Both the position numbers and the translations under genes were made by a program. From the IMG/VR virus record IMGVR_UViG_3300012921_000070, positions 1 to 52,643 of that record: a DNA stretch of 52,643 nucleotides; one strand, given 5' to 3'. Under the pieces are notes generated by a model that did not search any database, was not told the DNA's origin, and saw only the letters and a list, made by a program, of their open reading frames with translations. This stretch comes from a virus (lineage: Duplodnaviria > Caudoviricetes). Shown here in pieces: positions 2,308 through 51,919 of this stretch. Position 1 is the first letter of the stretch. Every line of letters begins with the position of its first letter.

Positions 2308-3281
2308 CACTCCGCCTCCCGCTTCTGCTGGTAGCGGAGGGCGGCGCGGAGATCGCCGTTGGTGAGAGCGCTCCCGTGAATCGGCAAAGTGTCCATCTCT
2401 GGATAGACACCGGTCAGCCAAGGCCGATTGCTTGCTTCAATCGCAAACGGCTTCACCACCTCGTCCGCCTCTGTCAGTAGCCCGGTGAGGCGCTCAATCT
2501 CCTTCGTTGATGCATCACGCAACACTGCGAATTCGTCCGTCGCCGTAGTCAGGAGATTTGTGAGGCGAGCGTTATCGGCTTGTGAGGCAATAATCGTGTT
2601 AATATACCCCGCGCACTCTTCCGAAGTTACTGGAGAAGCGAGTTCGTGCACACCCTTATCATACCCCTGCACGAACAACGGATGTTCTTCTTCATAGAAC
2701 CCGAACACCACTTCACTGCGCGCCTCGTCCCTCTCTACCGTGAGACGTTTAATGGCGTCTCGGCGCAGTTCGGCTACTTTTCGCCAGTCAACAGGACCGC
2801 CATCAACATCGTGCAAATCGCCAATTAGCAATGTTGAAGGCGTATCAACGTAGGCATCTTCCCACGCATCTGATGGTTCATCGACAGGAGCCGGAGCGGA
2901 CGGGACAAGGGCGGAGAGGTAGGCGCGGATCGCGTTTTCGATTGCCGCGTAGAAATCGACCATATCACCCGAACGCGTTCTGCTTGCGGCTGACTGCGCC
3001 GCCTCTAGCGCCTTCCGGTCCAGTTCGCCCGGCTGGACGGCTACCGGTTCGAGAGCGGAGAAGACTCGGCGCTCATAATCGGCCTGCGCGGCGTCGTGTA
3101 GGTCTTCATCGATTCCGCTGAACACCAACACGCCGTTTAGGCGCACCTCTTTGCGCTCCGCGTCTATCGCGTAAATGCCGACTGGGTCTGCTGTTGCAGT
3201 GGCCATCAGGTCACAGAACGGCTTCCACTCCAGCGCCTTCACATTCACGCCCGGCGCTTGCCGGTTCGGTTCGTTCGTCAT
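2307..3281 (-). CDS. Hypothetical phage accessory protein
   Basis: Starts MTNEPN after GGAG RBS; VKALEW...AAQADYERR motif common in rhizobial phages. Confidence 0.65.
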   Translation of the reverse strand: MTNEPNRQAPGVNVKALEWKPFCDLMATATADPVGIYAIDAERKEVRLNGVLVFSGIDEDLHDAAQADYERRVFSALEPVAVQPGELDRKALEAAQSAASRTRSGDMVDFYAAIENAIRAYLSALVPSAPAPVDEPSDAWEDAYVDTPSTLLIGDLHDVDGGPVDWRKVAELRRDAIKRLTVERDEARSEVVFGFYEEEHPLFVQGYDKGVHELASPVTSEECAGYINTIIASQADNARLTNLLTTATDEFAVLRDASTKEIERLTGLLTEADEVVKPFAIEASNRPWLTGVYPEMDTLPIHGSALTNGDLRAALRYQQKREAE

Positions 3282-7503: not shown

Positions 7504-8190
7504 TCAGTTCGCTCCCAGGATGTGGCGGGCGGTATGCTTCTCGTCGACGCCGAGATCGGACTTGAAGGCGATCCACTGCAGGTAATCGCGGGGAAGGTCG
7601 GCCCACTTCGCGCCTCGGTGTTTGCCGAAGGTGATGGTGCGAAGGACGACCGGTGCGGCAGTGAGCTCAACCAGCCTGTCAACGCTGGTCGCGAAGATCA
7701 TCCGCGAGAGCACGTAGGCGGTGACCAGTGTATCCGGGCCGGCGCGATGGGGTGGCATCGCTGCCACAGGATCGAGCCCATCGGCATCGACGTTGAGATA
7801 GTAGCGGAGCACCTGGTTCGAATGGCCGGGCGCGTCGGGGAAAATGTGCTTGGCGCATTGGAATGTGCAGATCCATCGATGCGATCCGCCGCCGAAGAAT
7901 GCGCGCTCGAATTTGGCATTATGTGCCGCGAACACGTCATCCGGCTCCATGCCAGCCATAAGCGTCTGGCAAGCTTCGGTTGGCGATATCGCGCCCGCAA
8001 CGTCGGCGTCGCTGATGTGGTGGACCGCTCGCGTCGCTGGCGGGATCGGATGGCCGGGGTTCACCAGCGCCGAGTGAGGTCCGTGGATTGACCAATCATC
8101 GTGGATATCGGTCCAGCCGATTTCGCAGATGCCCTTGACCTCATCTTCGGGCAGGCCAGTTGTTTCGAGGTCGATGACGCGGATTTTCAT
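7504..8190 (-). CDS. DEDDh 3'-5' exonuclease, ExoX-like
   Basis: IDLETTG, AHNAKFE, HRAGPD motifs; C-terminal FGKHRG...YLQW. Confidence 0.85.
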   Translation of the reverse strand: MKIRVIDLETTGLPEDEVKGICEIGWTDIHDDWSIHGPHSALVNPGHPIPPATRAVHHISDADVAGAISPTEACQTLMAGMEPDDVFAAHNAKFERAFFGGGSHRWICTFQCAKHIFPDAPGHSNQVLRYYLNVDADGLDPVAAMPPHRAGPDTLVTAYVLSRMIFATSVDRLVELTAAPVVLRTITFGKHRGAKWADLPRDYLQWIAFKSDLGVDEKHTARHILGAN

Positions 8191-9215
8191 GCTGCCTCCT
8201 GCTGCTCAAGGAATCGGTCGATCTGCTCCTTGGCCCATGGTTTCATCTGGATGTGTCTGGTGCCGTCGTTGAACGGCCTGGCGCCGGGCCACTCGCCGGC
8301 GTCGAGGCACTGGCGGATCGTGTCGAGGCACCAGCGGATGACGCGCTCGCCCCGGTCGATCTCGTGTTCCGAGACCTCGACGTGTGCCGTGTCCGGCACG
8401 TCGTCTTTCAGCACGTAGATCAGCGCGAAGGTCTCGAACGGGATGCCGAGACCGCGGCAAACCATCCGCGTCATCGCCGCCTGCAGGTAATAACCGGCGT
8501 CGAAAATCTGGCGCTCAAGGAAATCCTCGCCGAAGTCCGAGGCGGTCTTGAGATCGGCGAAAACTCCGTCGGCATGAGGGATCGCGTCTGGCCGCGCCTT
8601 GAGCCATATCCCGGTTGCCGGGTCCTTCCAGAACATCGATCGTTCGATGCGACCGTTCAGGATGCCGGACTGGATCAGCGGATGCCGGCTGGCATCGGCA
8701 TGGATACGCCGGATCATCTCCATGTCGTCGCTGGACAGGACGGTGCGGCCGTTGACGTGCCGCTCCAGCCATTCCTTGCAGACGTTGGATTTGGCTTTCC
8801 AGGGCTTGAATTCGCCCGTCTTGGCGTCAGGGTAGGAGTCCGGCCGGACGACGAATTTCTCTTCGAACACCTCATCGCCGAGGAGCCTGGCGTGCGCTGC
8901 CTTGCCGAAGTCGAGCGCCTTGGTGGTCTTGGGCTCGACATGGTCGGGATTGTGCTTCCACCGGCCCCAGAACGCTTTCGGGCTGCCGCCATGGGCCGGG
9001 ATGAGCCACTTCAACGCGCTCTTGGACACGGACGGCCCGTCGAGAAGATCGACCTTGCTGTGGTAGTCGTCTAGGCTGATGCCGCTCCACACACCAGGTT
9101 CCGAGATTGTCTCGCCAGTCCACCGGCGTTCCCCGCGCGCGCCGCGCACCACGCGCTCGGCAACGGCGCCGATCGGCTCGAACGCATCTCGGTCGATGTC
9201 CACATGTCGGGTCAT
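8187..9215 (-). CDS. RecE-like PD-(D/E)XK exonuclease (DUF3799)
   Basis: YH...SKSAL, FGKAAH, KARPD...ADLKT, GYYLQAA. Confidence 0.85.
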   Translation of the reverse strand: MTRHVDIDRDAFEPIGAVAERVVRGARGERRWTGETISEPGVWSGISLDDYHSKVDLLDGPSVSKSALKWLIPAHGGSPKAFWGRWKHNPDHVEPKTTKALDFGKAAHARLLGDEVFEEKFVVRPDSYPDAKTGEFKPWKAKSNVCKEWLERHVNGRTVLSSDDMEMIRRIHADASRHPLIQSGILNGRIERSMFWKDPATGIWLKARPDAIPHADGVFADLKTASDFGEDFLERQIFDAGYYLQAAMTRMVCRGLGIPFETFALIYVLKDDVPDTAHVEVSEHEIDRGERVIRWCLDTIRQCLDAGEWPGARPFNDGTRHIQMKPWAKEQIDRFLEQQEAA

Positions 9216-9397
9216 GCCGCGTTCCTCCGATCGAACAGCCGGTCGAGATCGGCCTTTGCCAGAGCGCGCCGCTCCGGGTCCTCGTCGTGCTTCAGCGCCT
9301 GTTCGATTTCGTGCAGCCGGTCGCGGATCGCTTTGCCTGCGAGTTCATCGCCGAGGGCCGCTGCGGCGCGGGCGATATGGGTGAGCTCGTCGATCAT
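9212..9397 (-). CDS. Hypothetical protein
   Basis: Coupled ATGA junctions on both sides. Confidence 0.55.
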   Translation of the reverse strand: MIDELTHIARAAAALGDELAGKAIRDRLHEIEQALKHDEDPERRALAKADLDRLFDRRNAA

Positions 9398-9666
9398 GAC
9401 GCGTCACTGCCTTTCTCGCGGGCGGCGATCATGGCGTCGGCGTATCGATATGCACCCCGCGCAACGCTAAGCAGAAAGGCTTCGTCAGATAGCGGGTCAT
9501 CGCCGCTATTTAGATGGTCCATAAGGTTCGCGTTGGCCGTTAAACCAGCGATTGCCTGCCCCGCGAGCCAGTCGCGCAGCGACATGCCGTTCGTCTGCAT
9601 ATCCGTGCAGTTCGGGTGAACTGCTGCAAACGGAAACGCTGGCCCACCGTCATTGATCGTGCTCAC
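9394..9666 (-). CDS. Hypothetical phage protein (GGPAFP...GMSLRDW family)
   Basis: DGGPAFP, GMSLRDWLAGQA, AYRYADAMIAAR; GTG start. Confidence 0.7.
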   Translation of the reverse strand: MSTINDGGPAFPFAAVHPNCTDMQTNGMSLRDWLAGQAIAGLTANANLMDHLNSGDDPLSDEAFLLSVARGAYRYADAMIAAREKGSDAS

Positions 9667-13713: not shown

Positions 13714-14235
13714 TTATGCTGCCGCAGGTGCGTCCTGTATGAGATGTAGCAAGTTCAACGCCCGGAGCCGGACCTCCATGGCCAACTTCGAAACGTCGAA
13801 CTTCTCCGCGAGGCCGGCCAGCGTAGTATTGCCAGAGGCGATCTCTTGCTGGATGGGCACCTTCGGCATCAGCAAACTTGCAGCAAAGCCGTTTGCTTGC
13901 ATTTCGTGCTGATAGGTGAGAGGCGCACTGACATTGCGGTTCGCGGCCTCATCGAATAATCGATCCAAGTGCTTGTGCTTCTTAAGCAAATCGCGGTGGT
14001 ATAGGAAGTGACCGAGCTCGTGCGCGGCCGTGAAGCGTCGGCGCTGGGGGCCTTCGTTGCTGTTTACGGCTATGGTGCAGGTCCATCCGTCGTATTCGAT
14101 GTAACCGGATTCTCCGGGCGGAAGATCACGCTCGACATAGGTCAGCCCAATATCGCGAATGATACCCTTCACATCGACCGGCGGGCGAAGCGCATATGCG
14201 CGAACGATCTCATTCTCGTTCTCGTATTTGATCAT
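13714..14235 (-). CDS. ImmA/IrrE family Zn metallopeptidase
   Basis: RRRFTAAHELGH, EMQANGFAASLLMP, C-terminal HTH. Confidence 0.9.
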   Translation of the reverse strand: MIKYENENEIVRAYALRPPVDVKGIIRDIGLTYVERDLPPGESGYIEYDGWTCTIAVNSNEGPQRRRFTAAHELGHFLYHRDLLKKHKHLDRLFDEAANRNVSAPLTYQHEMQANGFAASLLMPKVPIQQEIASGNTTLAGLAEKFDVSKLAMEVRLRALNLLHLIQDAPAAA

Positions 14236-26322: not shown

Positions 26323-26762
26323 CCGATTCCCGCGTCGCCGCGCTGTGTGCCGAGTTCGGGGTCGAGATCATCCCGGCGCACCGCTATCCCGAGATCGGCC
26401 AGACCCGGGCCACCGAGACCATCGCGCGCATCATCCGCAAGCACGGCGAGGCCCATGCCCGTCTGGTCATGTCCTTCCTGACCGAGACGGCGAACAACAA
26501 GACGCTGCTGGACGAAACCGGCCTCTGGTGCATGTCGGACATGCTGCGGGCCTGTGGCGGGCTGCTGGAGCGCCGGGCCGGGGATCTGATGGAAACCTTC
26601 GACGCGATGCCGCTGGGGCCGCTGCAGGCCATGGCGCAGGGCCTGTCAGGCCATGTCCCGGTTCGCTATGCACTGGACGGCATGGTTTGGGAACGCATCG
26701 CCCGCCGGTTCGGCGATGACGCGGACCAGATGGATTTGCTGGACGACAGGAGGATGCCATGA
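26319..26762 (+). CDS. Conserved rhizobial phage protein
   Basis: GTG after GGAGG; GQTRA...HGEAHARLV...ETANNK. Confidence 0.65.
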   Translation: MTDSRVAALCAEFGVEIIPAHRYPEIGQTRATETIARIIRKHGEAHARLVMSFLTETANNKTLLDETGLWCMSDMLRACGGLLERRAGDLMETFDAMPLGPLQAMAQGLSGHVPVRYALDGMVWERIARRFGDDADQMDLLDDRRMP

Positions 26763-27642: not shown

Positions 27643-28006
<364 letters not shown>

Positions 28007-39185: not shown

Positions 39186-39719
39186 ATGGTCGACTTTGAC
39201 CTGTCGGCGTTCGACGCCGTCGACGAAAGCTATTTCATCGCCCACGCGACTGATGCCGTCCGCTGGGTGTGGACCTATGCCGGCCCCGGTCATCCCAAGA
39301 CCATCGAGATTTCGAACCGTCGCGCCAAGAAGGATCTGCACGAGACCGCCCGGCAACAGCAGGCGATCGTCAACGGCAAGAAGTGGAAGGCCGAAGAGCA
39401 GTCCGTCGAAGAGGCCAAGGAAGATACGGTGCGCATCGCGACCGAACGCCTCCTTGGATGGCACCTGGAGGACGTGAAGACCGGCAAGAGGCTTCCCGAC
39501 CTGCCGAAGCTCAATGGCGAGCCGCTGCCGTTCAGCGAGGCCAATGCGATGCAGTTCCTTCGTGAGCCGCGCCGCATCGACACGCTCAGGCGGGCGCTCG
39601 AATGGCTGGGTGATGAGAATTCTTTTACGCAGCGCTCGGCGACGACCTCCGGGGATTCGCTGAGCGAACATTCGAGCTCGACCGGGACGAAGAAGGCCGC
39701 ACCCGCAGAGACCGCCTGA
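39186..39719 (+). CDS. Tail assembly chaperone G
   Basis: Between tube and tape measure; AGPGHP. Confidence 0.75.
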   Translation: MVDFDLSAFDAVDESYFIAHATDAVRWVWTYAGPGHPKTIEISNRRAKKDLHETARQQQAIVNGKKWKAEEQSVEEAKEDTVRIATERLLGWHLEDVKTGKRLPDLPKLNGEPLPFSEANAMQFLREPRRIDTLRRALEWLGDENSFTQRSATTSGDSLSEHSSSTGTKKAAPAETA

Positions 39720-43944: not shown

Positions 43945-46500
43945 ATGAAGATCAGGACCGTTCTTCTAGCCGGCGCCTCGCTGCTGGCGTTGACGACGCA
44001 CGCCTACAGTTTCGAGGCCATCGGCATCTTGATCGTCAATGTGGCGTTCGCTCTCCCAGGGGGTGTTCCTGCACTTGCTGCCCTGTTCCCGGCCGGCGCG
44101 TCCGCCGCCACGATCGGAGCTGCGGCTGTCTCTACTGCGCTGTCGCTTGGCGGCCTTGCGGTCAGTTTCCTGAACCAGCCGAAACTCCCCACACAAAAGA
44201 TCAAGCAAACCACGCAGGGTGCCGAAGGACCCGGCATCACGCTGTTCGGTCGAGCGGAGGCCAAGGGCCGCATCCTGTTCGGACGATCGACGGGCTACTA
44301 CCACACAAGGCTCGTCGCTCATGCGTTCGGGCCGGTCTCGACGATTGAAGCCTACTTCTACGACGGCCGCGAAATCACGGTGGAGCCCGACGGACTGGTG
44401 TCGTCGCCGCCTTGGGCCTATTGGGACCCGGGCGGCGGCTGGGACATCGCTGGGTCAACCGGCTCGTTCATGAACGTGCTTTCGCAAGTCGGCGACGGGA
44501 CAGAAGAAGCCTTCGCCTCGATGCTGACTGACTTCCCGAGCACGTGGACGGCAGCGCATCGGAACATCGGACTCGCGCAAAGCAGGGTGCGCATCCGCAG
44601 TCCAGGCACCCAAAGCGATAAATTCGGCCGCCTACTCCAGGGCGGAGTGAAGGAACTCAGCGTCCGCGGGCGGTGGCTTGAGCCATATGATCCGCGGATC
44701 GATGGCTACCAATGGACAATCAACGGCGTTTTGTGGTCGCTGCACTTCCTTCGCCAACTCGGCATGATCGATGACGAGGACATCGACTTTGATGACATCG
44801 GTGCGACGGCGACGCTGGGCGAAGCCACAGTCACGACCAAGACTGGAACGACGCAACGGTGCCAGGTGTCCGGCGGATGGGAAGGACCACTCACCCTCGA
44901 TATCGTCGCGGACATCATGCAGTCGTCCGGGCTGGAGTTGTATCAGACGGCCGCTGGCAAATGGTCTCTGCGGTTCATAGAGGATTGGCCGGAACCCGAA
45001 ATTTCAATCCCCGCCTCGTGCATCGTCGCGATCTATCCGCAGGCCGGGCCTGATAACGGCAAGCGCGCGACGCGCTGCACGCTCAGCTACTTCTCTCCGG
45101 AGCGGCGGTATGAAAGGGCGGAGGTCGCTCTTCACGAGATCGACACCGAGACCGACGAATACAAGGGCGCCGGCTGGGCGCGGCTGGACGATGAGGCTGA
45201 AGAACTCGGCGAGCAAGAGTTCCCATGCGACCTGACCTACACCTGCCATGCCTCGCTCGCGCAGAGGCTGGCGCGGCAGTTGTTCTATCTGGCTCGCGCC
45301 GACGCTGGTCTGTTGGTGACGAACTTCGCCGGCATCGCGGCGTGGGGCAGACGAACCGCGCTTATTGAGTTCCCGGATATTGGAGAGGATGGGGCATCGG
45401 TGTGGCTACGGGCGCGCCTTGGCGCTGTTCGGCCGAACGATGCCGAGGGCACGGTCGAGATACCGTTCAAGTTGATCCCGGAAATCCTCGCCACGCCGTT
45501 CAACCCGACAACCGACGAGGTCGACCCACCGCCCGTGTTGGTCCCTCCTATCACGGAATCCGATCTGACAAAGCCGCCACAGCCAACCGCGGCATGCGTG
45601 GTGCAGTATCCGGACGGGACACGCGAGTTGCGCGTCGCGACGGAAACCCCATCTGGCGCGGCGCATGTCGAAGCAGTGTTCAGGGTGTGGGACGCTGGAG
45701 GCCCGCTGCCGGGTCAGTCGATGACCGAGGTAGAACTGCCAGGCGCGGCAGACTTCGCCTGGCGGCAGATCAAATACAACATCTTCACCAATCCCGACAC
45801 ATGGTCGGGGTGGACGCTGGGCACGGGGTGGGCCGCTTCGCCTCCCTATCTGGTCGCGACGGCCGGGACACAATCGGCGGCGAACCAGACGCATGCCTTC
45901 ACGGCCGGCCTGTCCTACGACTTCATCGTCACCATTTCCGACCGGACGGCCGGCGTGCTGCGGCCCCGGTTTGGCGGCGGCGGCGCGGTCGAGGGCACGG
46001 ACATCTCGACCAACGGGACGTTCACCCAGACGCTGGTGGCAGCCAGCGGATCGTCTACTGCCAATTTCCGCAAGGATGCCAGCTTCAACGGCAAGCTCTC
46101 GGCGCCAAAGCTCTACCACACTGGGGATCATCCCGTGCTGGAGCTCGGCTCCAAGGTCGACTTCCGCAAGCGGATCTTCGACGGCGACGGCAATGCCAGC
46201 GAGTTCTCGGATGCGCTCGTGGTCGAGAGCATCGCGATCGACAATACGCCACTGACGACCCTCAGCATCGCCTCCGAGCGTGTGTTGATCGATGTCGGTG
46301 GGGGGGAGACCTATGCGTATGACCGCGTGGTCTTCACGGTCACCGCGCTTCGAACCGCCGCCTACCAGGTCAGCACCGGCCCGATCGTCAAGACTCGGCC
46401 CGGAACCTACACGGTGGACATAGGTCCGGTTGATCCGGAAGACCCAGCCGCCACCTATCCGGTCGTTCTTTACGTCTCGGACGGCACGCCCAGCACATGA
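43945..46500 (+). CDS. Tail tip/central fibre protein
   Basis: 851 aa; LFGR..G, YDPR, AQRLAR; beta-rich C-terminus. Confidence 0.8.
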   Translation: MKIRTVLLAGASLLALTTHAYSFEAIGILIVNVAFALPGGVPALAALFPAGASAATIGAAAVSTALSLGGLAVSFLNQPKLPTQKIKQTTQGAEGPGITLFGRAEAKGRILFGRSTGYYHTRLVAHAFGPVSTIEAYFYDGREITVEPDGLVSSPPWAYWDPGGGWDIAGSTGSFMNVLSQVGDGTEEAFASMLTDFPSTWTAAHRNIGLAQSRVRIRSPGTQSDKFGRLLQGGVKELSVRGRWLEPYDPRIDGYQWTINGVLWSLHFLRQLGMIDDEDIDFDDIGATATLGEATVTTKTGTTQRCQVSGGWEGPLTLDIVADIMQSSGLELYQTAAGKWSLRFIEDWPEPEISIPASCIVAIYPQAGPDNGKRATRCTLSYFSPERRYERAEVALHEIDTETDEYKGAGWARLDDEAEELGEQEFPCDLTYTCHASLAQRLARQLFYLARADAGLLVTNFAGIAAWGRRTALIEFPDIGEDGASVWLRARLGAVRPNDAEGTVEIPFKLIPEILATPFNPTTDEVDPPPVLVPPITESDLTKPPQPTAACVVQYPDGTRELRVATETPSGAAHVEAVFRVWDAGGPLPGQSMTEVELPGAADFAWRQIKYNIFTNPDTWSGWTLGTGWAASPPYLVATAGTQSAANQTHAFTAGLSYDFIVTISDRTAGVLRPRFGGGGAVEGTDISTNGTFTQTLVAASGSSTANFRKDASFNGKLSAPKLYHTGDHPVLELGSKVDFRKRIFDGDGNASEFSDALVVESIAIDNTPLTTLSIASERVLIDVGGGETYAYDRVVFTVTALRTAAYQVSTGPIVKTRPGTYTVDIGPVDPEDPAATYPVVLYVSDGTPST

Positions 46501-46567
46501 AGCAACACGCCCGGCGCGACCGCGACGGCGATCTACACCTGATCAATCCAAGCAATTCGAGGTTGCC

Positions 46568-49201
46568 ATGTCCGTCTTTACCAAGCCGGCCGCAGAAGTG
46601 TTCGCACCAACGACCGCGGGCGGCGCGCCGCGCGGCGCCGACATCGGAGAGGCGCAGGTCTGGGGCGTCGAGGTCGAGACGGCCATCAATGCCGCTATCG
46701 CTTCCGGGGCGCTGGTCTACACGACCAAGGCGGCGCTTGATGCTGATCTTGCACACCCGGCCAACACGGGCGCATGGGTGGTTGCGGACGGAACGTCGGC
46801 GAACAACGGCATCTACAACAAGGCTGGCGCGTCAGGCGCCGGGTCGTGGACGAAGCGTATCGGACTTCCGGTGGGTGTGACCGGTGCGACTGGCCCAGCC
46901 GGACCGGCGGGGGCCACAGGTGCGACCGGTGCGACAGGAGCGACTGGCGCGCAGGGTCCGGCAGGCCCGACGGGTGCAACGGGAGCTGCTGGGCCGACCG
47001 GACCAGCTGGAGCGGATGCCCCTCTCGGCGATCTTGCCCAGACTCAGGGGCGGCCCGGCGATGCCGTGTCGCGGTTCACGTCGACCTTGACGGGTGCGGC
47101 CGATGCTGCCGCATCTCCGAATGGCACGCCGACCAACAATCTGGACGGCCGGGTCCTGCGCATAACGGGCGATGACACGCTGGCCCTGCGCGAGCGGATC
47201 AAGGTCGAGAGTGGGCACAAGTATCTGCTGACATGGATATTCAAGCGGGCGACGAACCCGACCGATCCGGCAGGCGATACGGTTCGGTGCGACATCCAGT
47301 TTCTGACCTCGGCCAAGGCCGCCAATGGCACCATGTCGGTGCCGATCGATACAACGTTGACGGTGGCGATGGGGCGTCAGGTGATCACGCTGGTGGTGGC
47401 CGGCGAGGCCGGCGACGGTGTCGATGTTGTCTGGTCTGCGAACACCAAATATATCGTGCCCTTCATCCGCACTTATGGCGCAGACGGCGTGACCGATCGC
47501 GAGGCGATCGAGTGGGCGGACATCACCTTTGGTGATACGGCCGTGGCCGCTGTGGCTGCCGATCTGGCAGAACTGGACGAAGCGGTAGTGCACAAGGCCG
47601 GGGACGAAAACATTGACGGGGTCAAGACGTTCTCTGAATCGCCTATAGTGCCGACGCTCCCGCCTGGCACCAACACGACTCAGATCGCTTCGACCGCGCA
47701 TGTCAAGGCGGCGATCGACCAGCTGCTCTCCGGGGCGCCGGGCGCGCTGGACACGCTGAACGAGCTGGCCGCCGCTCTTGGCGACGACGAGAACTTCGCG
47801 GCGAACGTGACGAATGCTCTGAGCCTGCTACAGGCAGCGCTCGATCTAAAGGCGGCCGACAGCGCAGTCGTCCATAAGACCGGCGATGAGACCATCGCCG
47901 GGGTCAAGGAATTCAACGGGGCTGTGAAGGTCACCGAGCATCAGCCCGGCTACGACACCGACGAGGACGGGCCGTTTACCGTCGTAAGCGAGGACGGGAA
48001 GATCCTCCAGCAGCCGGTGATGCGAGAGGAATACGACACCGACGAGGATGCCGCGCGCGTCGTGGTCGGCCTCGACGGCCATATCCTCTTCGAGGATGTT
48101 CCGCCGCCCTACGCACCTGTGGTGAATGCCCACGCGGTGCGTCAGGCGCGGGTGAAGCTACGCAGCATCCTTCGCGGCTCTGTCAAGCAGTGCCGCATAG
48201 GGTGGATCGGGGACTCTTACTTCAACAGTTGGACACCAGCATGGTTTCGCAACCGTATGGTGTCGATCTTCGGCAACGCTGGGCCGGGCTTCGTATCGCT
48301 GGAGACCTCGGAGAACTTCGTCAGCGCCGATACCAACATATCGATCGCCTCGACCGGGACATGGACCAACACCAAGGGCGGCAAGGCGGTCCCCCGGCTC
48401 TCGACCGCATCGACATCCGATCCGGCCGCCTTCAGAACCGTGTTCGGCAATGGCGCGATCACGTCCGCCCACCTGCATTATCTGGCAGCGGGTGGTGCGA
48501 CGGCCTTCTATCGCTGGGGTGTCTATGGCGGGTCCGGCTCGCTGACCGACCGGACGAAGTATGCATTTGGTTCCAATCACTCGCTCGACCTGTCGACCGG
48601 CTATCGCATTTCGATGCCGACCGACCTCCCGGCAAGCGGCTATTGGGCGCTGGAGATCGGGTGCGCCGCCGGCACGATAGAGGTGGCCTCGGTCGACCTG
48701 AAGAACAGCGCGGCCGGCGTTATCGTCGACAACCTCGGCGTCGGCGGGTTCACAACGTCGAACTGGCTCGCACCGAACTCCGCGGCCTGGTCGACCGTCA
48801 TCGGGTCCATGAATATCGATCTGGCGATCATAGGGCTGGGTCCCAACGACCAGGCCGGCACGGTGCCTGACACGGGCATCGCCAACAACTTCGCCGAGAT
48901 CAGGCAGCGGCTTCTTGTCGGGACGCCTTCGATGAGCACCGTGTTCATGTCGGCGCCCGAGAACTTCCTCGGCCGGGCGCGCAAGATGGCGGACATCACG
49001 AAGGCCGTGCGCGCCATGGCGATGCAGCTCGGCGTCACGCATGTGGATCTGCAGCCGCTCTTCGGCCCGGTCGAGCACAAGGAAGATTACCGCTCGACCG
49101 GCATTCGTCCGCTAGTTGCTGCCTATCCGGACGACATCCACCCCTCCGTCGACGGCGGCGATCTCATCCTCGCCCAGGCCATCGAAGACCTCCTGATCTG
49201 A
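46568..49201 (+). CDS. Tail fibre/spike with collagen repeat and SGNH esterase
   Basis: 16 Gly-X-Y triplets; APGALDTLNELAAALGDD; SGNH blocks GDS, GVGG, GPND, DDIHP. Confidence 0.85.
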   Translation: MSVFTKPAAEVFAPTTAGGAPRGADIGEAQVWGVEVETAINAAIASGALVYTTKAALDADLAHPANTGAWVVADGTSANNGIYNKAGASGAGSWTKRIGLPVGVTGATGPAGPAGATGATGATGATGAQGPAGPTGATGAAGPTGPAGADAPLGDLAQTQGRPGDAVSRFTSTLTGAADAAASPNGTPTNNLDGRVLRITGDDTLALRERIKVESGHKYLLTWIFKRATNPTDPAGDTVRCDIQFLTSAKAANGTMSVPIDTTLTVAMGRQVITLVVAGEAGDGVDVVWSANTKYIVPFIRTYGADGVTDREAIEWADITFGDTAVAAVAADLAELDEAVVHKAGDENIDGVKTFSESPIVPTLPPGTNTTQIASTAHVKAAIDQLLSGAPGALDTLNELAAALGDDENFAANVTNALSLLQAALDLKAADSAVVHKTGDETIAGVKEFNGAVKVTEHQPGYDTDEDGPFTVVSEDGKILQQPVMREEYDTDEDAARVVVGLDGHILFEDVPPPYAPVVNAHAVRQARVKLRSILRGSVKQCRIGWIGDSYFNSWTPAWFRNRMVSIFGNAGPGFVSLETSENFVSADTNISIASTGTWTNTKGGKAVPRLSTASTSDPAAFRTVFGNGAITSAHLHYLAAGGATAFYRWGVYGGSGSLTDRTKYAFGSNHSLDLSTGYRISMPTDLPASGYWALEIGCAAGTIEVASVDLKNSAAGVIVDNLGVGGFTTSNWLAPNSAAWSTVIGSMNIDLAIIGLGPNDQAGTVPDTGIANNFAEIRQRLLVGTPSMSTVFMSAPENFLGRARKMADITKAVRAMAMQLGVTHVDLQPLFGPVEHKEDYRSTGIRPLVAAYPDDIHPSVDGGDLILAQAIEDLLI
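46874..47017 (+). repeat. Collagen-like Gly-X-Y coding repeat
   Basis: GVT GAT GPA GPA GAT...GAD, 9-nt periodicity. Confidence 0.85.
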
Positions 49202-49213
49202 AGGACCATCCCC

Positions 49214-50122
49214 ATGCAGACTGTGCATATCGATCCCAATCTCGCCGCCGCTGCCGGTCACGGGCTGATGGGGCGCACAAAGCTCATTCGCACCGATGTG
49301 AGCCGGGGCAACAAGTGGTCATTCGACCTATCGCGAGGCTACTGCTCGCCCGGCGTTGGGACGATCGTCAATGGCGCGGTGGTTAAGAACCTTTCCGAAA
49401 GCTATGCCGAGCGCGACAACCCGGTGCCGGCCGGGGACATGGTCATAGCGTCGAGCGAAACACTGTCCGTCTCGGGCGGCGGCATCTACTTCGGCGCGGC
49501 GACGGTCGCCAACAGTTATCTGCGCGGCCCTGCCACGGCCGCCGCCGCGATCTGGGCGAACGGTCAGTATTATCTCTCGACTACCGTTCTGAAGCTGCCA
49601 ACGGCGGCGGACTGGGCGGAATCCACGACAGCCATCCTGCCGTTCCACAGCTGGACAGCCGGCGTTAACAGCTACGCGGCCAATCTGGACATTGCCTCGA
49701 CGGGTTTCCAGAAGTCCGGCGCGACGCCGATCATCATGCATCGCAGGCAGTATGGTGGCGCTTTCGCTGGCGACCTTGTCGGACTCATTCCGCCCACGGC
49801 AGCGCTCGGGGGGTTTGCCATGGTCGCATCGTGGTATCGGCCGGGCGAGATCGGGACGGCGTTCTATTATCCGGGCGGGATCGTCCCGGCGACACCTATC
49901 GCGCCGACCGGGGCACACAGCACTGACTTCTCGGCGCTTCGGCCGTTGCGCGGCTTGCCAGCGACAATCTGGAACGCGGAAATCGCCAACAACGCTCACA
50001 AGTTCAAGATCTACGCCGGCTTCGACGAAGCGATCGGCCTGTCGGGTCGCAGCGTATCGGCCGTGCTTGCCGAGCACTGGGCTCGGGAAAAGGCGAAGTG
50101 GGACGCCGGGATCTATTCGTGA
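49214..50122 (+). CDS. Tail-associated beta-rich protein
   Basis: AAGGA RBS; follows fibre gene. Confidence 0.6.
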   Translation: MQTVHIDPNLAAAAGHGLMGRTKLIRTDVSRGNKWSFDLSRGYCSPGVGTIVNGAVVKNLSESYAERDNPVPAGDMVIASSETLSVSGGGIYFGAATVANSYLRGPATAAAAIWANGQYYLSTTVLKLPTAADWAESTTAILPFHSWTAGVNSYAANLDIASTGFQKSGATPIIMHRRQYGGAFAGDLVGLIPPTAALGGFAMVASWYRPGEIGTAFYYPGGIVPATPIAPTGAHSTDFSALRPLRGLPATIWNAEIANNAHKFKIYAGFDEAIGLSGRSVSAVLAEHWAREKAKWDAGIYS

Positions 50123-50250
50123 CCGGCCGACCGACAGGTCTTTGACTGCTCCGGCGCGAACATCTGCTCGACCGAGCCTGCTCGCGGCCGGCATGGCTCC
50201 GGCACCGGCGCGCAGCCGGCAAGCACGGCAAGGATGACGAGGTATCGCAT
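50113..50250 (-). CDS. Small lipoprotein (45 aa), not in ORF track
   Basis: MRYLVILAVLAGCAPVPEPCRPRAGSVEQMFAPEQSKTCRSAGHE; LAGC lipobox; GGGGAG RBS. Confidence 0.7.
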   Translation of the reverse strand: MRYLVILAVLAGCAPVPEPCRPRAGSVEQMFAPEQSKTCRSAGHE

Positions 50251-50257
50251 GGAACTC

Positions 50258-50429
50258 CCCTGGTTTGGATCGGGGAGTTGAGAAGCCTCTGGTGAAGCCG
50301 CCGACGCCTTTAGGCTTTCGCCCTGGACATGCGCGCACGGCCTCCCCGACCAAACCGGGAAACGCGCCCTGACCAGCGATCAGGACGCGCCATTACCGCC
50401 GAAGCGGACCAGAGGGGTTCTCACGCCCC
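50258..50429 (-). ncRNA. C4-like antisense RNA with upstream target
   Basis: ~18-bp closing stem; GAAA and UUCG tetraloops on minus strand; TTCTCA segment complementary to target GGGGCGTGAGAACCCC. Confidence 0.6.
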
Positions 50430-50459
50430 AGCGCCGCCGTGTCGGCCGCGCCGTCGACA

Positions 50460-50488
50460 CAGATAGCCGCCCGCGCAGGCCAAGGCAA
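50460..50488 (-). promoter_or_regulatory. Putative sigma70 promoter for C4-like RNA/lipoprotein
   Basis: TTGCCT-N17-TATCTG. Confidence 0.45.
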
Positions 50489-50558
50489 CGCGCCTGACCG
50501 CTGCGGGCTCCATCACAACCCGACCTGAACACTCCGCCACTGGCGGAAAGGAGAGACC

Positions 50559-51344
50559 ATGGACAAGTATCATGTCTATCGGCCGATGCTGAACCTCATC
50601 GGCTACACCGAGGGCACCGACAAGGGCGCGGGCTACAACGAGACGCTCGCCTACGGCGCCTATACCGGCGGCGCGGTGAACCTGGTCAAGATGACGCTGG
50701 ATGAGCTCGACACGCTGCAGACGAAGATGCTGCGGCATCCGAAGAACAAGCTGAAGTCCTCGGCGGCCGGCCGGTATCAGATCGTCCGCACCACGGCGCG
50801 CGCGATCCGCGCCGCGCTCGACATGACCGGCCGGGAGAAGTTTGACGAGGACATGCAGGACCGCATGGCCTGCTACCTGCTCGGGCAGCGCGGCATCGAC
50901 AAGTATCTCGCGGGCCGGATGTCCGAGGACACGCTGCTCAACAACCTGGCGAAGGAATGGGCCTCGCTGCCCACAACCGCGGGCAAGGGCTACTACGGCG
51001 GGCAGCACGCCGCGGTGACGCCGGCACGGGTGCGGGCGGTGCTGGCAGAGGTGCGCGATCGCCACCGGGAAGACCAGCCGAAGGAGGTCGAGACGGTCGA
51101 GGTCGAGAAGCCCGTCGTTCCGGAGAAGGTCGACAAGGAGGTCAAGCAGAAAACCAACTGGCTGACCTATCTCTTCGGCGCGGGCGGCCTGGGATCGGGC
51201 GCGATCGCCTTCCTGCGCGACGCGGACTGGCAGACCATCGCGGCGCTGATTGCCGGCGGTGTCGTGGCCGGCGGTCTGTCGCTCGCGGCCGGGATCTGGA
51301 TCGTGCGCCGCATCAAGGCGATCAAGGCGGAGATCGCGGCGTGA
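50559..51344 (+). CDS. Endolysin (lambda-R-like transglycosylase) with C-terminal TM helices
   Basis: IGYTEGT, SSAAGRYQI, QDRMA, EWASLP. Confidence 0.88.
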   Translation: MDKYHVYRPMLNLIGYTEGTDKGAGYNETLAYGAYTGGAVNLVKMTLDELDTLQTKMLRHPKNKLKSSAAGRYQIVRTTARAIRAALDMTGREKFDEDMQDRMACYLLGQRGIDKYLAGRMSEDTLLNNLAKEWASLPTTAGKGYYGGQHAAVTPARVRAVLAEVRDRHREDQPKEVETVEVEKPVVPEKVDKEVKQKTNWLTYLFGAGGLGSGAIAFLRDADWQTIAALIAGGVVAGGLSLAAGIWIVRRIKAIKAEIAA

Positions 51345-51535
51345 GTAAGCGTCGCTGTGTGGCTTGTCGAGGCGAGCGATGGGTCGATGATCAGAATTGG
51401 TCCGCAGAACATCCCGATCTCTACTCTCGGCTCGGTGATGCGCTCCGTAAGCCCGGAGACGGCCGCATTCCCTGTGCCCGCTGCAACTTTGCCGGATGGG
51501 ACGTGCCAGACGGCAAACCTGTGAAGGTGGCATGA
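51341..51535 (+). CDS. Small Zn-finger protein
   Basis: CVAC...CARC; GTGA-coupled. Confidence 0.5.
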   Translation: MSKRRCVACRGERWVDDQNWSAEHPDLYSRLGDALRKPGDGRIPCARCNFAGWDVPDGKPVKVA

Positions 51536-51789
51536 TGCTCGCACTCCTCCCCACCTGGCTGCGGCTCGGCGCCGTGGCCGTGCTCGGCGGCATGATCGCC
51601 GCCGGGCCTGTCTATCTCTACGGCCATTCCAAGGGGCGCGAGGCGGAGCGCGTGGCCGTCCTGAAGCGATCCGTCGACCTCCTGCGCGAAAGGAATGCGA
51701 GCGATGAAGCGATCAACGGCATGGATGATGCTGGCCTGTGTGCCGCTCTTGACGGTGTCTGGGTGCCAGACGACCGGCGGTGCGAGTGA
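51532..51789 (+). CDS. i-spanin (Rz-like)
   Basis: N-terminal TM, helical periplasmic part. Confidence 0.65.
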   Translation: MMLALLPTWLRLGAVAVLGGMIAAGPVYLYGHSKGREAERVAVLKRSVDLLRERNASDEAINGMDDAGLCAALDGVWVPDDRRCE

Positions 51790-51919
51790 ATGCGACGGAT
51801 GGCGCAAGCTCTCGCCGGCCGCGGCGACGCGCGACTTCATCGTCCGGCAGGACCGTCCGTTCGCCGAACAGGTCGCCGGTCACAACCGGTTCGGCGCGCA
51901 GCGCAAGTGCTGGCAGTGA
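51704..51919 (+). CDS. o-spanin (Rz1-like lipoprotein)
   Basis: VSGC lipobox; overlaps Rz 3' end in another frame. Confidence 0.7.
   Translation: MKRSTAWMMLACVPLLTVSGCQTTGGASECDGWRKLSPAAATRDFIVRQDRPFAEQVAGHNRFGAQRKCWQ

Follow-up and report, generated by a model that had tools for sequence, protein, structure and literature searches.

Antisense RNAs derived from the leader of an operon can pair with sites in transcripts of that same operon, as do the CI RNA of phage P4 (seqA/seqB/seqC) and IsrK of Salmonella. P4 has an upstream site, seqA, and acts by transcription termination; IsrK activates a long transcript that is translationally inactive. We know of no use of a closing-stem strand as an anti-Shine-Dalgarno element by either RNA. 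In phage P1, the immI region is annotated in the order a1, b1, c4, a2, b2, icd, ant, and C4 targets a2 and b2 downstream, over the ribosome-binding site of icd. Here we analyse a leader of ~200 nucleotides (nt) on the minus strand (~50454 to 50251) of a provirus record from IMG/VR (IMGVR_UViG_3300012921_000070), the whole 52,643 nt of which are referred to as the window. The leader precedes an open reading frame (ORF) for a lipoprotein of 45 amino acids (aa). An initial annotation had assigned to it a C4-like design, with a target followed by a cloverleaf, and the same layout is indeed found in the P1 record and in the Rfam models.

The second described RNA relevant to this locus is sRNA-Xcc1, which the accessible parts of the literature discuss as a virulence-linked, trans-acting small RNA (sRNA) with predicted targets. 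In Xanthomonas it is a discrete RNA of ~88-100 nt on Northern blots, with mapped ends (PMC2996969). It precedes symE in integron cassettes of this genus (bioRxiv 10.1101/2025.06.18.660453) and, in APSE phages, a gene for an ORF6N protein (bioRxiv 10.1101/2020.03.17.996009). A Xylella genome has C4, isrK and sRNA-Xcc1 matches within 400 nt, and another strain has five tandem copies (PMC12189769). Neither flanking cognate sites nor a C4-like layout of sRNA-Xcc1 is described in those parts of the literature; such a description may already be in Chen et al. 2011.

We propose that the leader is a diverged alphaproteobacterial sRNA-Xcc1/C4-like RNA that would act as a two-state switch, a reading to which we give an even chance of being correct. 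The support for the element comes from covariation in 14 sequences and from its conservation in a close relative of the window, X4.

Homologues of the leader

Thirteen further copies of the ~190-nt element were found, on four phage or metagenome contigs and on seven alphaproteobacterial plasmids (one with three copies); the plasmid homologues are from Shinella, Paracoccus, Sphingomonas, Qipengyuania, Polymorphobacter and Haematospirillum. Together with the window they form the comparison set of 14 sequences, aligned over the full length (alignment A6), in which the core architecture is kept across four alphaproteobacterial orders and phages. The leader of a metagenome locus, L007, aligns with that of the window with 12 pairs changed on both sides, five of them in the target/antisense helix described below, and with a loop swap from GAAA to UUCG. 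This locus retains the convergent 302-aa gene, and a D12-type methylase replaces the lysozyme upstream. A degenerate pattern built on the window/L007 alignment yielded three further phage contigs (L015-L017). A 33-kb Haematospirillum plasmid (L021), which is also filed among phages, carries three tandem copies ~297 nt apart (2403-3088), and each unit has promoter-like hexamers and matched target/junction letters that differ from those of the other two.

In blastn comparison of the leader with plasmids, the core was present on 10 alphaproteobacterial plasmids, in unannotated DNA every time; five of the 15 plasmid records (H12 and H14-H17), which match the first 40 G+C-rich bases alone and in two of the five cases lie under annotated genes, were dropped as chance. 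An exact 30-mer matched no viral contig, and a strict anti-Shine-Dalgarno pattern matched, among viral contigs, that of L007 alone. The L021 element, compared with the phage collection by blastn, found its own record only, and two 29-nt matches of the L016 element in that collection (E = 0.6) were disregarded. The 302-aa protein as query had no match in viral or genome contigs, the lipoprotein profile had none in genome contigs, and the loci recovered through the lysozyme contained no similar intergenic DNA.

Some settings of the plasmid copies were noted in passing. The RNA copy on the Shinella plasmid (L018, 1-3207) adjoins genes for a Tn3-family transposase and a resolvase, among insertion sequence (IS) elements. 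The title of Chen et al. 2011 contains the words 'transposon- and plasmid-transferred', which fits this position beside a Tn3-family transposase.

Covariation in the junction and in the target/antisense helix

In the proposed layout, a three-way-junction RNA is preceded, 60-100 nt upstream, by a hairpin-borne target site (T) that is complementary to arm 2 and the 3′ junction strand, here called the antisense segment (A). Upon re-reading of the sequence, all features of the initial annotation were found on the minus strand where it had placed them (Table 1). They include the complementarity of ACCAGAGGCTTCTC (50293-50280) to 50422-50408, with 13 pairs, one C/G mismatch and a one-base bulge, and a longer closing helix (50359-50342 / 50277-50258), which is present in the minimum-free-energy fold.

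RNAalifold, applied to the 14 sequences, gave a core of 24 pairs, 14 of them with compensatory changes. When the P1 target hairpin, the closing stem, arm 1 with its GNRA hairpin and arm 2 were taken together (30 pairs), 91.4% of 420 alignment cells were paired compared with 78.2 +/- 1.3% after shuffling, and 54 cells carried double changes compared with 21 +/- 3.5 (0/500 shuffles as high); in slid controls pairing fell to 35-57%. Within this set 94.6% of the cells of P1 (four pairs) and 82% of those of arm 2 are paired, with some covariation. The in-register part of the T-A helix (15 pairs) behaves in the same way: 85.2% of 210 cells are paired, as against 73.7 +/- 1.4% for shuffled sequences, with 29 double-change cells as against 7.9 +/- 2.6 (again 0/500 as high) and slid controls at 34-61%, so that the complementarity first noticed in a single sequence is borne out. 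Three loop/junction pairs, which join the last letters of the P1 loop to the 3′ junction strand, are paired in 14/14 sequences with two to four pair types each, and the three paralogous copies of L021 each have their own matched loop/junction letters. The part of the helix 3′ of the P1 hairpin is not alignable in columns; duplex prediction shows it to be complementary in every element, with different letters, and the whole T-A helix measures 17-21 bp across the elements. A longer T-A helix that takes in the closing-stem strand (columns 14-17 / 193-196) was rejected, as the added part is broken in two to six of the 14 sequences at three of the four columns. A caution that counts against our proposal is that the shuffle controls ignore relatedness, and the set contains rows of close kin (L016/L017, L019/L022, L021a-c and L020/L023); within the covariation evidence, more weight can be placed on the slid controls and on how many pair types occur.

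The core contains 61 G.U cells, and its pairing drops from 91.4% on the minus (gene) strand to 78.6% on the other; therefore, the RNA and the downstream gene share one coding strand. A structure acting on the plus strand or as DNA, for example a terminator or insulator that separates the tail-fibre operon from the lysis operon or a set of protein-bound inverted repeats, would fit the position of the element within the 436-nt gap that separates the plus-strand operons 49214-50122 and 50559-51344. Moreover, the plus strand of the window folds better than shuffled sequences (z = -2.11), and the T-A helix is equally good on either strand (85.2% and 87.6%). However, apart from the G.U cells, the swaps between GAAA and UUCG tetraloops and the orientation of the element, which is that of the following gene in every homologue, whatever the neighbours, make such a role very improbable.

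Conservation of the leader in a close relative

Words of the stretch are present in sequencing runs of 13 studies, most with small shares, and four runs were compared directly. One of them (X4) contains a relative of ~93% identity, the contigs of which cover 50124-50498. Nine differences from the window fall into the 45-aa ORF, seven of the nine at third codon positions; four lie in the spacer and the hairpin loop beside the Shine-Dalgarno sequence, and seven just upstream of 50438. No difference is listed between 50265 and 50438, where differences within ~15 nt of the ends of a piece are not listed and 50372-50390 was left out as uninformative. Thus, 0/155 informative positions changed in the leader and 20/171 in the flanks (Fisher p = 1.6e-6). 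The changes that touch P0, the 5′ hairpin directly before P1, sit in its bulge or loop or yield G.U pairs, and a hairpin of differing sequence was seen by eye at this position in every homologue.

These counts indicate that the leader is under strong purifying selection and, as judged from this comparison, more constrained than the protein that it precedes. The initial annotation had allowed that the element could be a relic. A decaying remnant of a C4-type immunity region without its antirepressor would account for the lack of an ant gene and of a downstream target and for the failure of the window to match the Rfam models, but it is hardly compatible with an unchanged leader between diverging flanks, with the full architecture in 14 copies from four alphaproteobacterial orders and phages, or with compensatory changes throughout; we consider it the least credible of the explanations discussed here.

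A 152-nt contig (depth 13.5) from another run, X17, spans exactly 50272-50423, which reaches from the target to the closing-stem 3′ strand. The run is labelled metagenomic RNA-Seq and was rated as probably DNA. The contig was not used as evidence; unitigs break where conserved sequence meets variable flanks.

Relationship to sRNA-Xcc1 and C4

The only Rfam family that matches the homologues at relaxed thresholds is sRNA-Xcc1 (RF02221), which belongs to no Rfam clan. The three copies of L021 scored 32.9, 30.1 and 29.8 bits and L007 scored 32.1 bits against a cut-off of 53, and the alignments are full-length (model positions 1-87), with the same three helices. For the reciprocal comparison, a covariance model (R1, with rough E-values) was built from the new clade; it finds one copy in the window (50247-50356), by construction. 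Canonical sRNA-Xcc1 sequences were collected with the conserved part of the consensus as a pattern, which matched more than 107 viral contigs, and 80 loci (695 kb) were fetched; 12 of 14 hand-picked ones pass the Rfam cut-off, with 63.7-77.5 bits. At E <= 1, R1 had 52 matches in the 80 loci, with modest scores (best 34 bits, 4.5e-5), and in the five loci compared (L036, L041, L043, L062 and L079) its matches coincide with RF02221 sites. Since the homologues match sRNA-Xcc1 below its cut-off and R1 in turn matches RF02221 sites, the two groups appear to be related, the clade of the window being probably a diverged relative outside the curated family and below threshold in both directions. One locus, L097, contains a tandem array (7571-9507) with at least five R1 matches ~380 nt apart.

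Both groups share a closing stem of 9-10 bp, an arm 1 that carries an internal loop and ends in a GNRA hairpin, an arm 2 and a 3′ junction strand of 6-8 nt. Both are borne by phages, plasmids and transposons, occur in tandem arrays and have an upstream site that covaries. They differ in the sequence of the arm-1 internal loop and in the upstream site, which is continuous over 17-21 bp in the new clade, whereas sRNA-Xcc1 has two sites of 7-8 nt. In addition, the new clade lacks a downstream site, its cargo is neither an antirepressor nor symE, and its hosts are alphaproteobacterial.

The likeness to C4 of P1 and P7 is one of design, not of sequence: the order of promoter, upstream target hairpins, junction RNA and gene; a module placed in the leader of its own operon; a target borne by a hairpin loop and complementary to the 3′ junction strand; a three-way junction with two hairpins and a single-stranded antisense 3′ junction strand; and a complementary upstream site in the same transcript (T, 50424-50408, which covaries in the 14 sequences). 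In contrast, the closing stem of C4 has 17 bp and its arm-2 loop 12 nt, and no model matches in either direction. The second target of C4 is also handled differently here, the ribosome-binding site being covered, in the predicted alternative fold, by the 3′ strand of the closing stem, and the controlled gene would be a lipoprotein gene instead of icd/ant. Of the two signs named in the initial annotation, a C4-family hit and covariation, the second is present and the first is absent; the element is not a member of the C4 family, there being no match to Rfam C4, c4-a1b1 or c4-2. The C4 model (RF01695, cut-off 45 bits) had no match at gathering score, and at E <= 10 it matched neither 50000-50650 nor any other part of the record; eight homologous loci gave no match at E <= 1, with P1 as positive control at 68.8 bits; c4-a1b1 (RF03163) had none in 50000-50650 at E <= 10. 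Within the same interval and threshold Rfam gave a single chance-level SECIS_2 match.

The isrK model (RF01394) matches the spacer between a1b1 and c4 of P1 (L033, 1394-1475) with 35 bits, below its cut-off of 50. Based on this match, 'isrK' annotations beside C4 matches may be C4 upstream regions.

Flanking complementary sites were also examined in the canonical sRNA-Xcc1 RNAs. Among 75 distinct cores, an exact complement of at least 8 nt to arm 2 or the junction strand occurs upstream in 47 and downstream in 33, compared with 7.2% and 5.0%, respectively, for mismatched partners. Upstream, a distance of ~107 nt between site and anchor is the most frequent. Downstream, some sites complement the junction strand, and others complement the arm-2 loop and run into the Shine-Dalgarno sequence; in 43 of 71 cores, a count without a control, no more than 25 nt separate the end of a site from the first ORF. 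Eight of 15 downstream ORFs chosen by hand encode AntA, P22_AR, KilA-N or Rha domains, and the other seven carry none. This canonical layout is that of P1 immI and of the Rfam C4 and c4-a1b1 models. Examples among L035-L114 are L037 (1379-2130), L039 (2780-3790) and L041 (5889-6278).

A possible two-state switch

The 3′ strand of the closing stem, CUCCCC, has two possible partners, namely the 5′ strand of the stem and the Shine-Dalgarno sequence GGGGAG 12 nt downstream; the segments AACTCCCC (50279-50272) and GGGGAGTT (50260-50253) flank the Shine-Dalgarno sequence of the 45-aa ORF. The hairpin that had been suggested to hide the ribosome-binding site exists, with -12.8 kcal/mol and 2/200 shuffles as low, and imposing T-A in a nested fold removes the closing stem, whereupon this hairpin forms in the window. 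The two partners of CUCCCC, the swap of hairpins upon imposition of T-A and the closeness in energy of the two folds are the grounds for a two-state reading. In state B, T would be held in its own hairpin, the junction would be closed by GGUCGGGGAG / CUCCCCGAUC, and the Shine-Dalgarno sequence would not be covered by CUCCCC. In state A, T and A would form 17 bp, opening arm 2 and competing with the closing stem, and the freed CUCCCC would fold onto GGGGAG and hide the ribosome-binding site. We infer that the states alternate instead of coexisting as a pseudoknot. T may meet the A of its own molecule or, as with C4 in P1, that of junction RNAs cut from earlier transcripts.

In energy calculations, the upstream region of an element was the best partner for its own A in 12 of 13 cases, and the unconstrained minimum fold contained T-A for eight of the 11 elements; the other three, among them the window, had the closed junction. 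Matrices of cognate and non-cognate energies are noisy in RNA that is so rich in G+C, and in-register pair counts are the better test.

A number of results weigh against the switch. The window alone does not distinguish the finding from chance: 16/200 shuffled versions of A pair as well as A does with the upstream region, and five or six sites elsewhere in the window are as good as T, among them those at 2341-2370, 13819-13848, 26511-26540 and 39469-39498, which pair with A at -21 to -22.5 kcal/mol compared with -20.7 kcal/mol for T. The fold of the minus strand is likewise modest evidence (z = -2.96; 2/200 shuffles as good). No RNA family (C4, c4-a1b1 or sRNA-Xcc1, the last searched on the whole record) matches in the window at E <= 10, R1 has no match on P1, and no sequencing run listed as containing the stretch is recorded as RNA. 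For the window, the closed junction (-116.5 kcal/mol) is favoured by 10 kcal/mol over T-A (-106.6 kcal/mol), and in the fold of lowest energy T is paired with the ribosome-binding region, a pairing that was rejected as a conserved feature, as it is not kept in X4 or L007. The Shine-Dalgarno hairpin is better than shuffles in the window, L007, L016 and L024, but no better in 8 of 12 elements, for which reason the output stage may differ between subgroups. Finally, the covariation looks the same for pairing in cis and in trans and for a switch and a static pseudoknot, and the T-A helix and the closing stem have one column only in common.

That single column of conflict means that both helices can coexist, as would be the case in a static, compact pseudoknot in which T-A is stacked on the closing stem and which would serve, without switching, as a stabilizer of the messenger RNA (mRNA), a processing signal or a platform for a protein. 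The internal loop and the hairpin of arm 1 would fit a binding site, being nearly invariant and outside both alternative pairings. However, the pairing and covariation of arm 2 and P1 (82% and 95% of cells) would be needless if T-A were permanent, and the 3′ strand of the closing stem has its alternative partner over the Shine-Dalgarno sequence. We regard a static structure as improbable.

The junction RNA might instead be cut from the leader, e.g. by RNase P, which releases C4 as an RNA of ~77 nt, and act as a free, trans-acting sRNA of the immunity type, strictly in the sense of C4 or P4 CI, with the lipoprotein gene as a passenger; its main job would then lie elsewhere, in titrating or terminating new transcripts at T or in acting on other phage or host mRNAs. 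ACCA follows directly after the closing stem in 5 of the 14 copies, which we take to recall a tRNA-like 3′ end; with five copies only, it was rejected as a feature of the element. Such a role is favoured further by the variety of the downstream cargo, by the canonical relatives, which have C4-style flanking targets and precede antirepressors, and by the discrete, end-mapped sRNA-Xcc1 of Xanthomonas (PMC2996969). On the other hand, no second target lies near any ribosome-binding site: in 9 of 11 elements, A pairs with the next 150 nt, where a site of the a2/b2 type would be expected, no better than its shuffled versions do. In the window 38/200 shuffled A segments are as low, and the two marginal elements of the 11 pair at unrelated places. 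Several sites elsewhere in the window equal T as candidate trans targets; none is at a checked start codon, all are within chance expectation, and they were rejected. The absence of an ant gene and of a downstream target, recorded by the initial annotation, is confirmed by the gene list and this pairing test. Among the phage elements, the closing-stem strand and the Shine-Dalgarno sequence overlap in a conserved manner, which points to a role in controlling the gene behind the leader, and we consider a purely trans-acting role unlikely.

The putative promoter of the initial annotation stands as far as the hexamers themselves are present, with L007 counterparts (Table 1), but this is a resemblance, as a consensus promoter scan of the region called no promoter-like site; a promoter at 50460-50487 would place the transcript start near 50454, by inference only. 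P3, a hairpin followed by U residues, was rejected as a regulated terminator: by eye, similar hairpins with three to four U are present in L007, L016, L017 and L021 and absent from L015, L018-L020 and L022-L024 (~6 of 14 copies), and a terminator scan did not call P3.

The lipoprotein and other downstream genes

The 45-aa protein has the signal peptide MRYLVILAVLAGC and two further conserved Cys residues. In 4/4 aligned homologues the signal peptide, the AGC of the lipobox, the motif CRPRAGSVEQMFAP and the third Cys are invariant, the residue before AGC being L in three of them and V in L008. With a short basic and hydrophobic signal peptide and a lipobox, it is probably processed by signal peptidase II. 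Its relatives are a 59-aa protein (76% identity) and the proteins of L007 (80%), L008 and L009 (68% each); L008 and L009 have the lipoprotein without the long leader. The homologues and the 7/9 X4 differences at third codon positions show that the ORF is a real gene. The family is tiny, with six representatives at E <= 1e-3, three of which have 930-2397 aa and match in short segments, and one at E <= 1e-10. No Pfam or PHROG family was found for it, and its nearest Atlas clusters are small lipoproteins at scores of 0.88-0.90, a weak and generic likeness.

The gene adjoins the tail-fibre genes in the opposite orientation and follows a promoter-like sequence of its own, a placement typical of lysogenic-conversion genes. 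By analogy, it may have a part in superinfection exclusion, a function known for lipoproteins of T5 (Llp) and phi80 (Cor).

The suggestion that the RNA gates the lipoprotein holds in so far as the leader does precede it here, but the module is not specific to lipoproteins, and homologous leaders precede regulators and secreted proteins. Small lipoproteins are the cargo in the window, L007 and L015. L016 and L017 have, in the same slot between tail-fibre and lysis genes, a Trp-rich protein of 86-88 aa followed by a secreted protein. The plasmids have regulators of the DUF2285 / RovC type (L019, L022), a helix-turn-helix (HTH) protein (L021) or secreted proteins of 253-291 aa (L020, L023, L024).

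Small Trp-rich proteins of 57-88 aa, without a Pfam family and alike by eye, were seen beside the lipoprotein in L009 (661-834) and, in place of the lipoprotein behind the RNA leader, in L016 (2905-3171) and L017 (8274-8534).

Genomic setting

The lipoprotein ORF and its leader are opposite in strand to their neighbours and occupy the slot between the tail-fibre and lysis modules (Table 1). Residues 177-261 alone of the endolysin-like protein are common to three other viral contigs, with 49-81% identity. The sole DNA matches to named phages, in a blastn search of the phage collection, are lysozymes of Rhizobium and Sinorhizobium phages; from these and from the RNA homologues on alphaproteobacterial plasmids, the host is probably an alphaproteobacterium. 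The sole Rfam match at gathering score is a transfer RNA (tRNA) gene in the middle of the record (27930-28002, plus strand, 54.6 bits), with the anticodon loop CUCAUAA.

Table 1. Positions of the leader parts and neighbouring genes in the window
Feature	Position	Strand	Description
Collagen-like tail-fibre gene	46430-49201	+	Neighbour of the 302-aa gene
302-aa gene	49214-50122	+	No family assigned; converges on the 45-aa ORF with an overlap of 10 nt
45-aa lipoprotein ORF	50250-50113	-	Lipobox LAGC
Alternative hairpin	50253..50279	-	AACUCCCC / GGGGAGUU; closing-stem 3′ strand would cover Shine-Dalgarno GGGGAG (50260-50255)
A, antisense segment	50278..50293	-	Arm-2 loop, arm-2 3′ strand and 3′ junction strand; complements T
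Arm 2	50299-50284	-	Part of the three-way-junction core
Arm 1	50341-50300	-	Conserved internal loop; GGGC-GAAA-GCCU hairpin (GGC-GAAA-GCC arm) at 50323-50312
Three-way-junction core	50268..50351	-	Closing stem 50351-50342 / 50277-50268
P3	50359..50391	-	G+C-rich hairpin of 13-14 bp, then UUU; terminator-like but weak
P2	50407-50396	-	CCGC-UUCG-GCGG (cUUCGg) in the predicted fold; different hairpin in L007
T, target site	50408..50424	-	3′ part of P1 loop, P1 3′ strand and next 7 nt; complements A
P1, target hairpin	50429-50414	-	GGGG-CGTGAGAA-CCCC, also written GGGG-CGUGAGAA-CCCC; 4 pairs
P0, 5′ hairpin	50429..50453	-	Directly before the target hairpin; predicted fold
Promoter-like hexamers	50487-50482 and 50465-50460	-	TTGCCT, 17 nt, TATCTG; aligned place in L007: TTGCGG, 17 nt, TAGATT
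Non-coding stretch, 308 nt			Between the 45-aa ORF and the endolysin-like gene
Endolysin-like gene	50559-51344	+	Lysozyme-type N-terminal part, hydrophobic C-terminal stretch
Rz-like spanin genes	51496-51919	+	Overlapping; look like inner- and outer-membrane spanin, the outer one with lipobox LTVSGC

Implications

The leader belongs to a real, conserved and apparently undescribed clade of C4-like leader RNAs which, judging from the comparisons above, is related to sRNA-Xcc1 and may have been rewired to gate other genes. This adds an unannotated, well-supported structured RNA clade to the phages and plasmids of alphaproteobacteria, with two mutually exclusive helices that each carry a covariation signal. 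We also put forward, tentatively and at rather less than an even chance, that the sRNA-Xcc1 superfamily as a whole is a C4-type self-targeting RNA of mobile elements, the alphaproteobacterial clade being a rewired version of it. In the course of such rewiring, the target at the ribosome-binding site would have been dropped, the upstream site enlarged to 17-21 bp, and the RNA's own closing-stem strand recruited as an anti-Shine-Dalgarno element. For sRNA-Xcc1, the function of which has been open since 2010-2011, this gives a testable hypothesis, namely that it controls the gene behind it in the manner of C4, by way of complementary sites that its own transcript carries. It would also be a case of regulatory rewiring in which one RNA scaffold gates antirepressors in one branch and cargo of the lysogenic-conversion type in another. 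If this is true, the element would be a portable RNA fuse placed before genes that need restriction, such as those for lipoproteins, DUF2285 and HTH regulators and secreted proteins.

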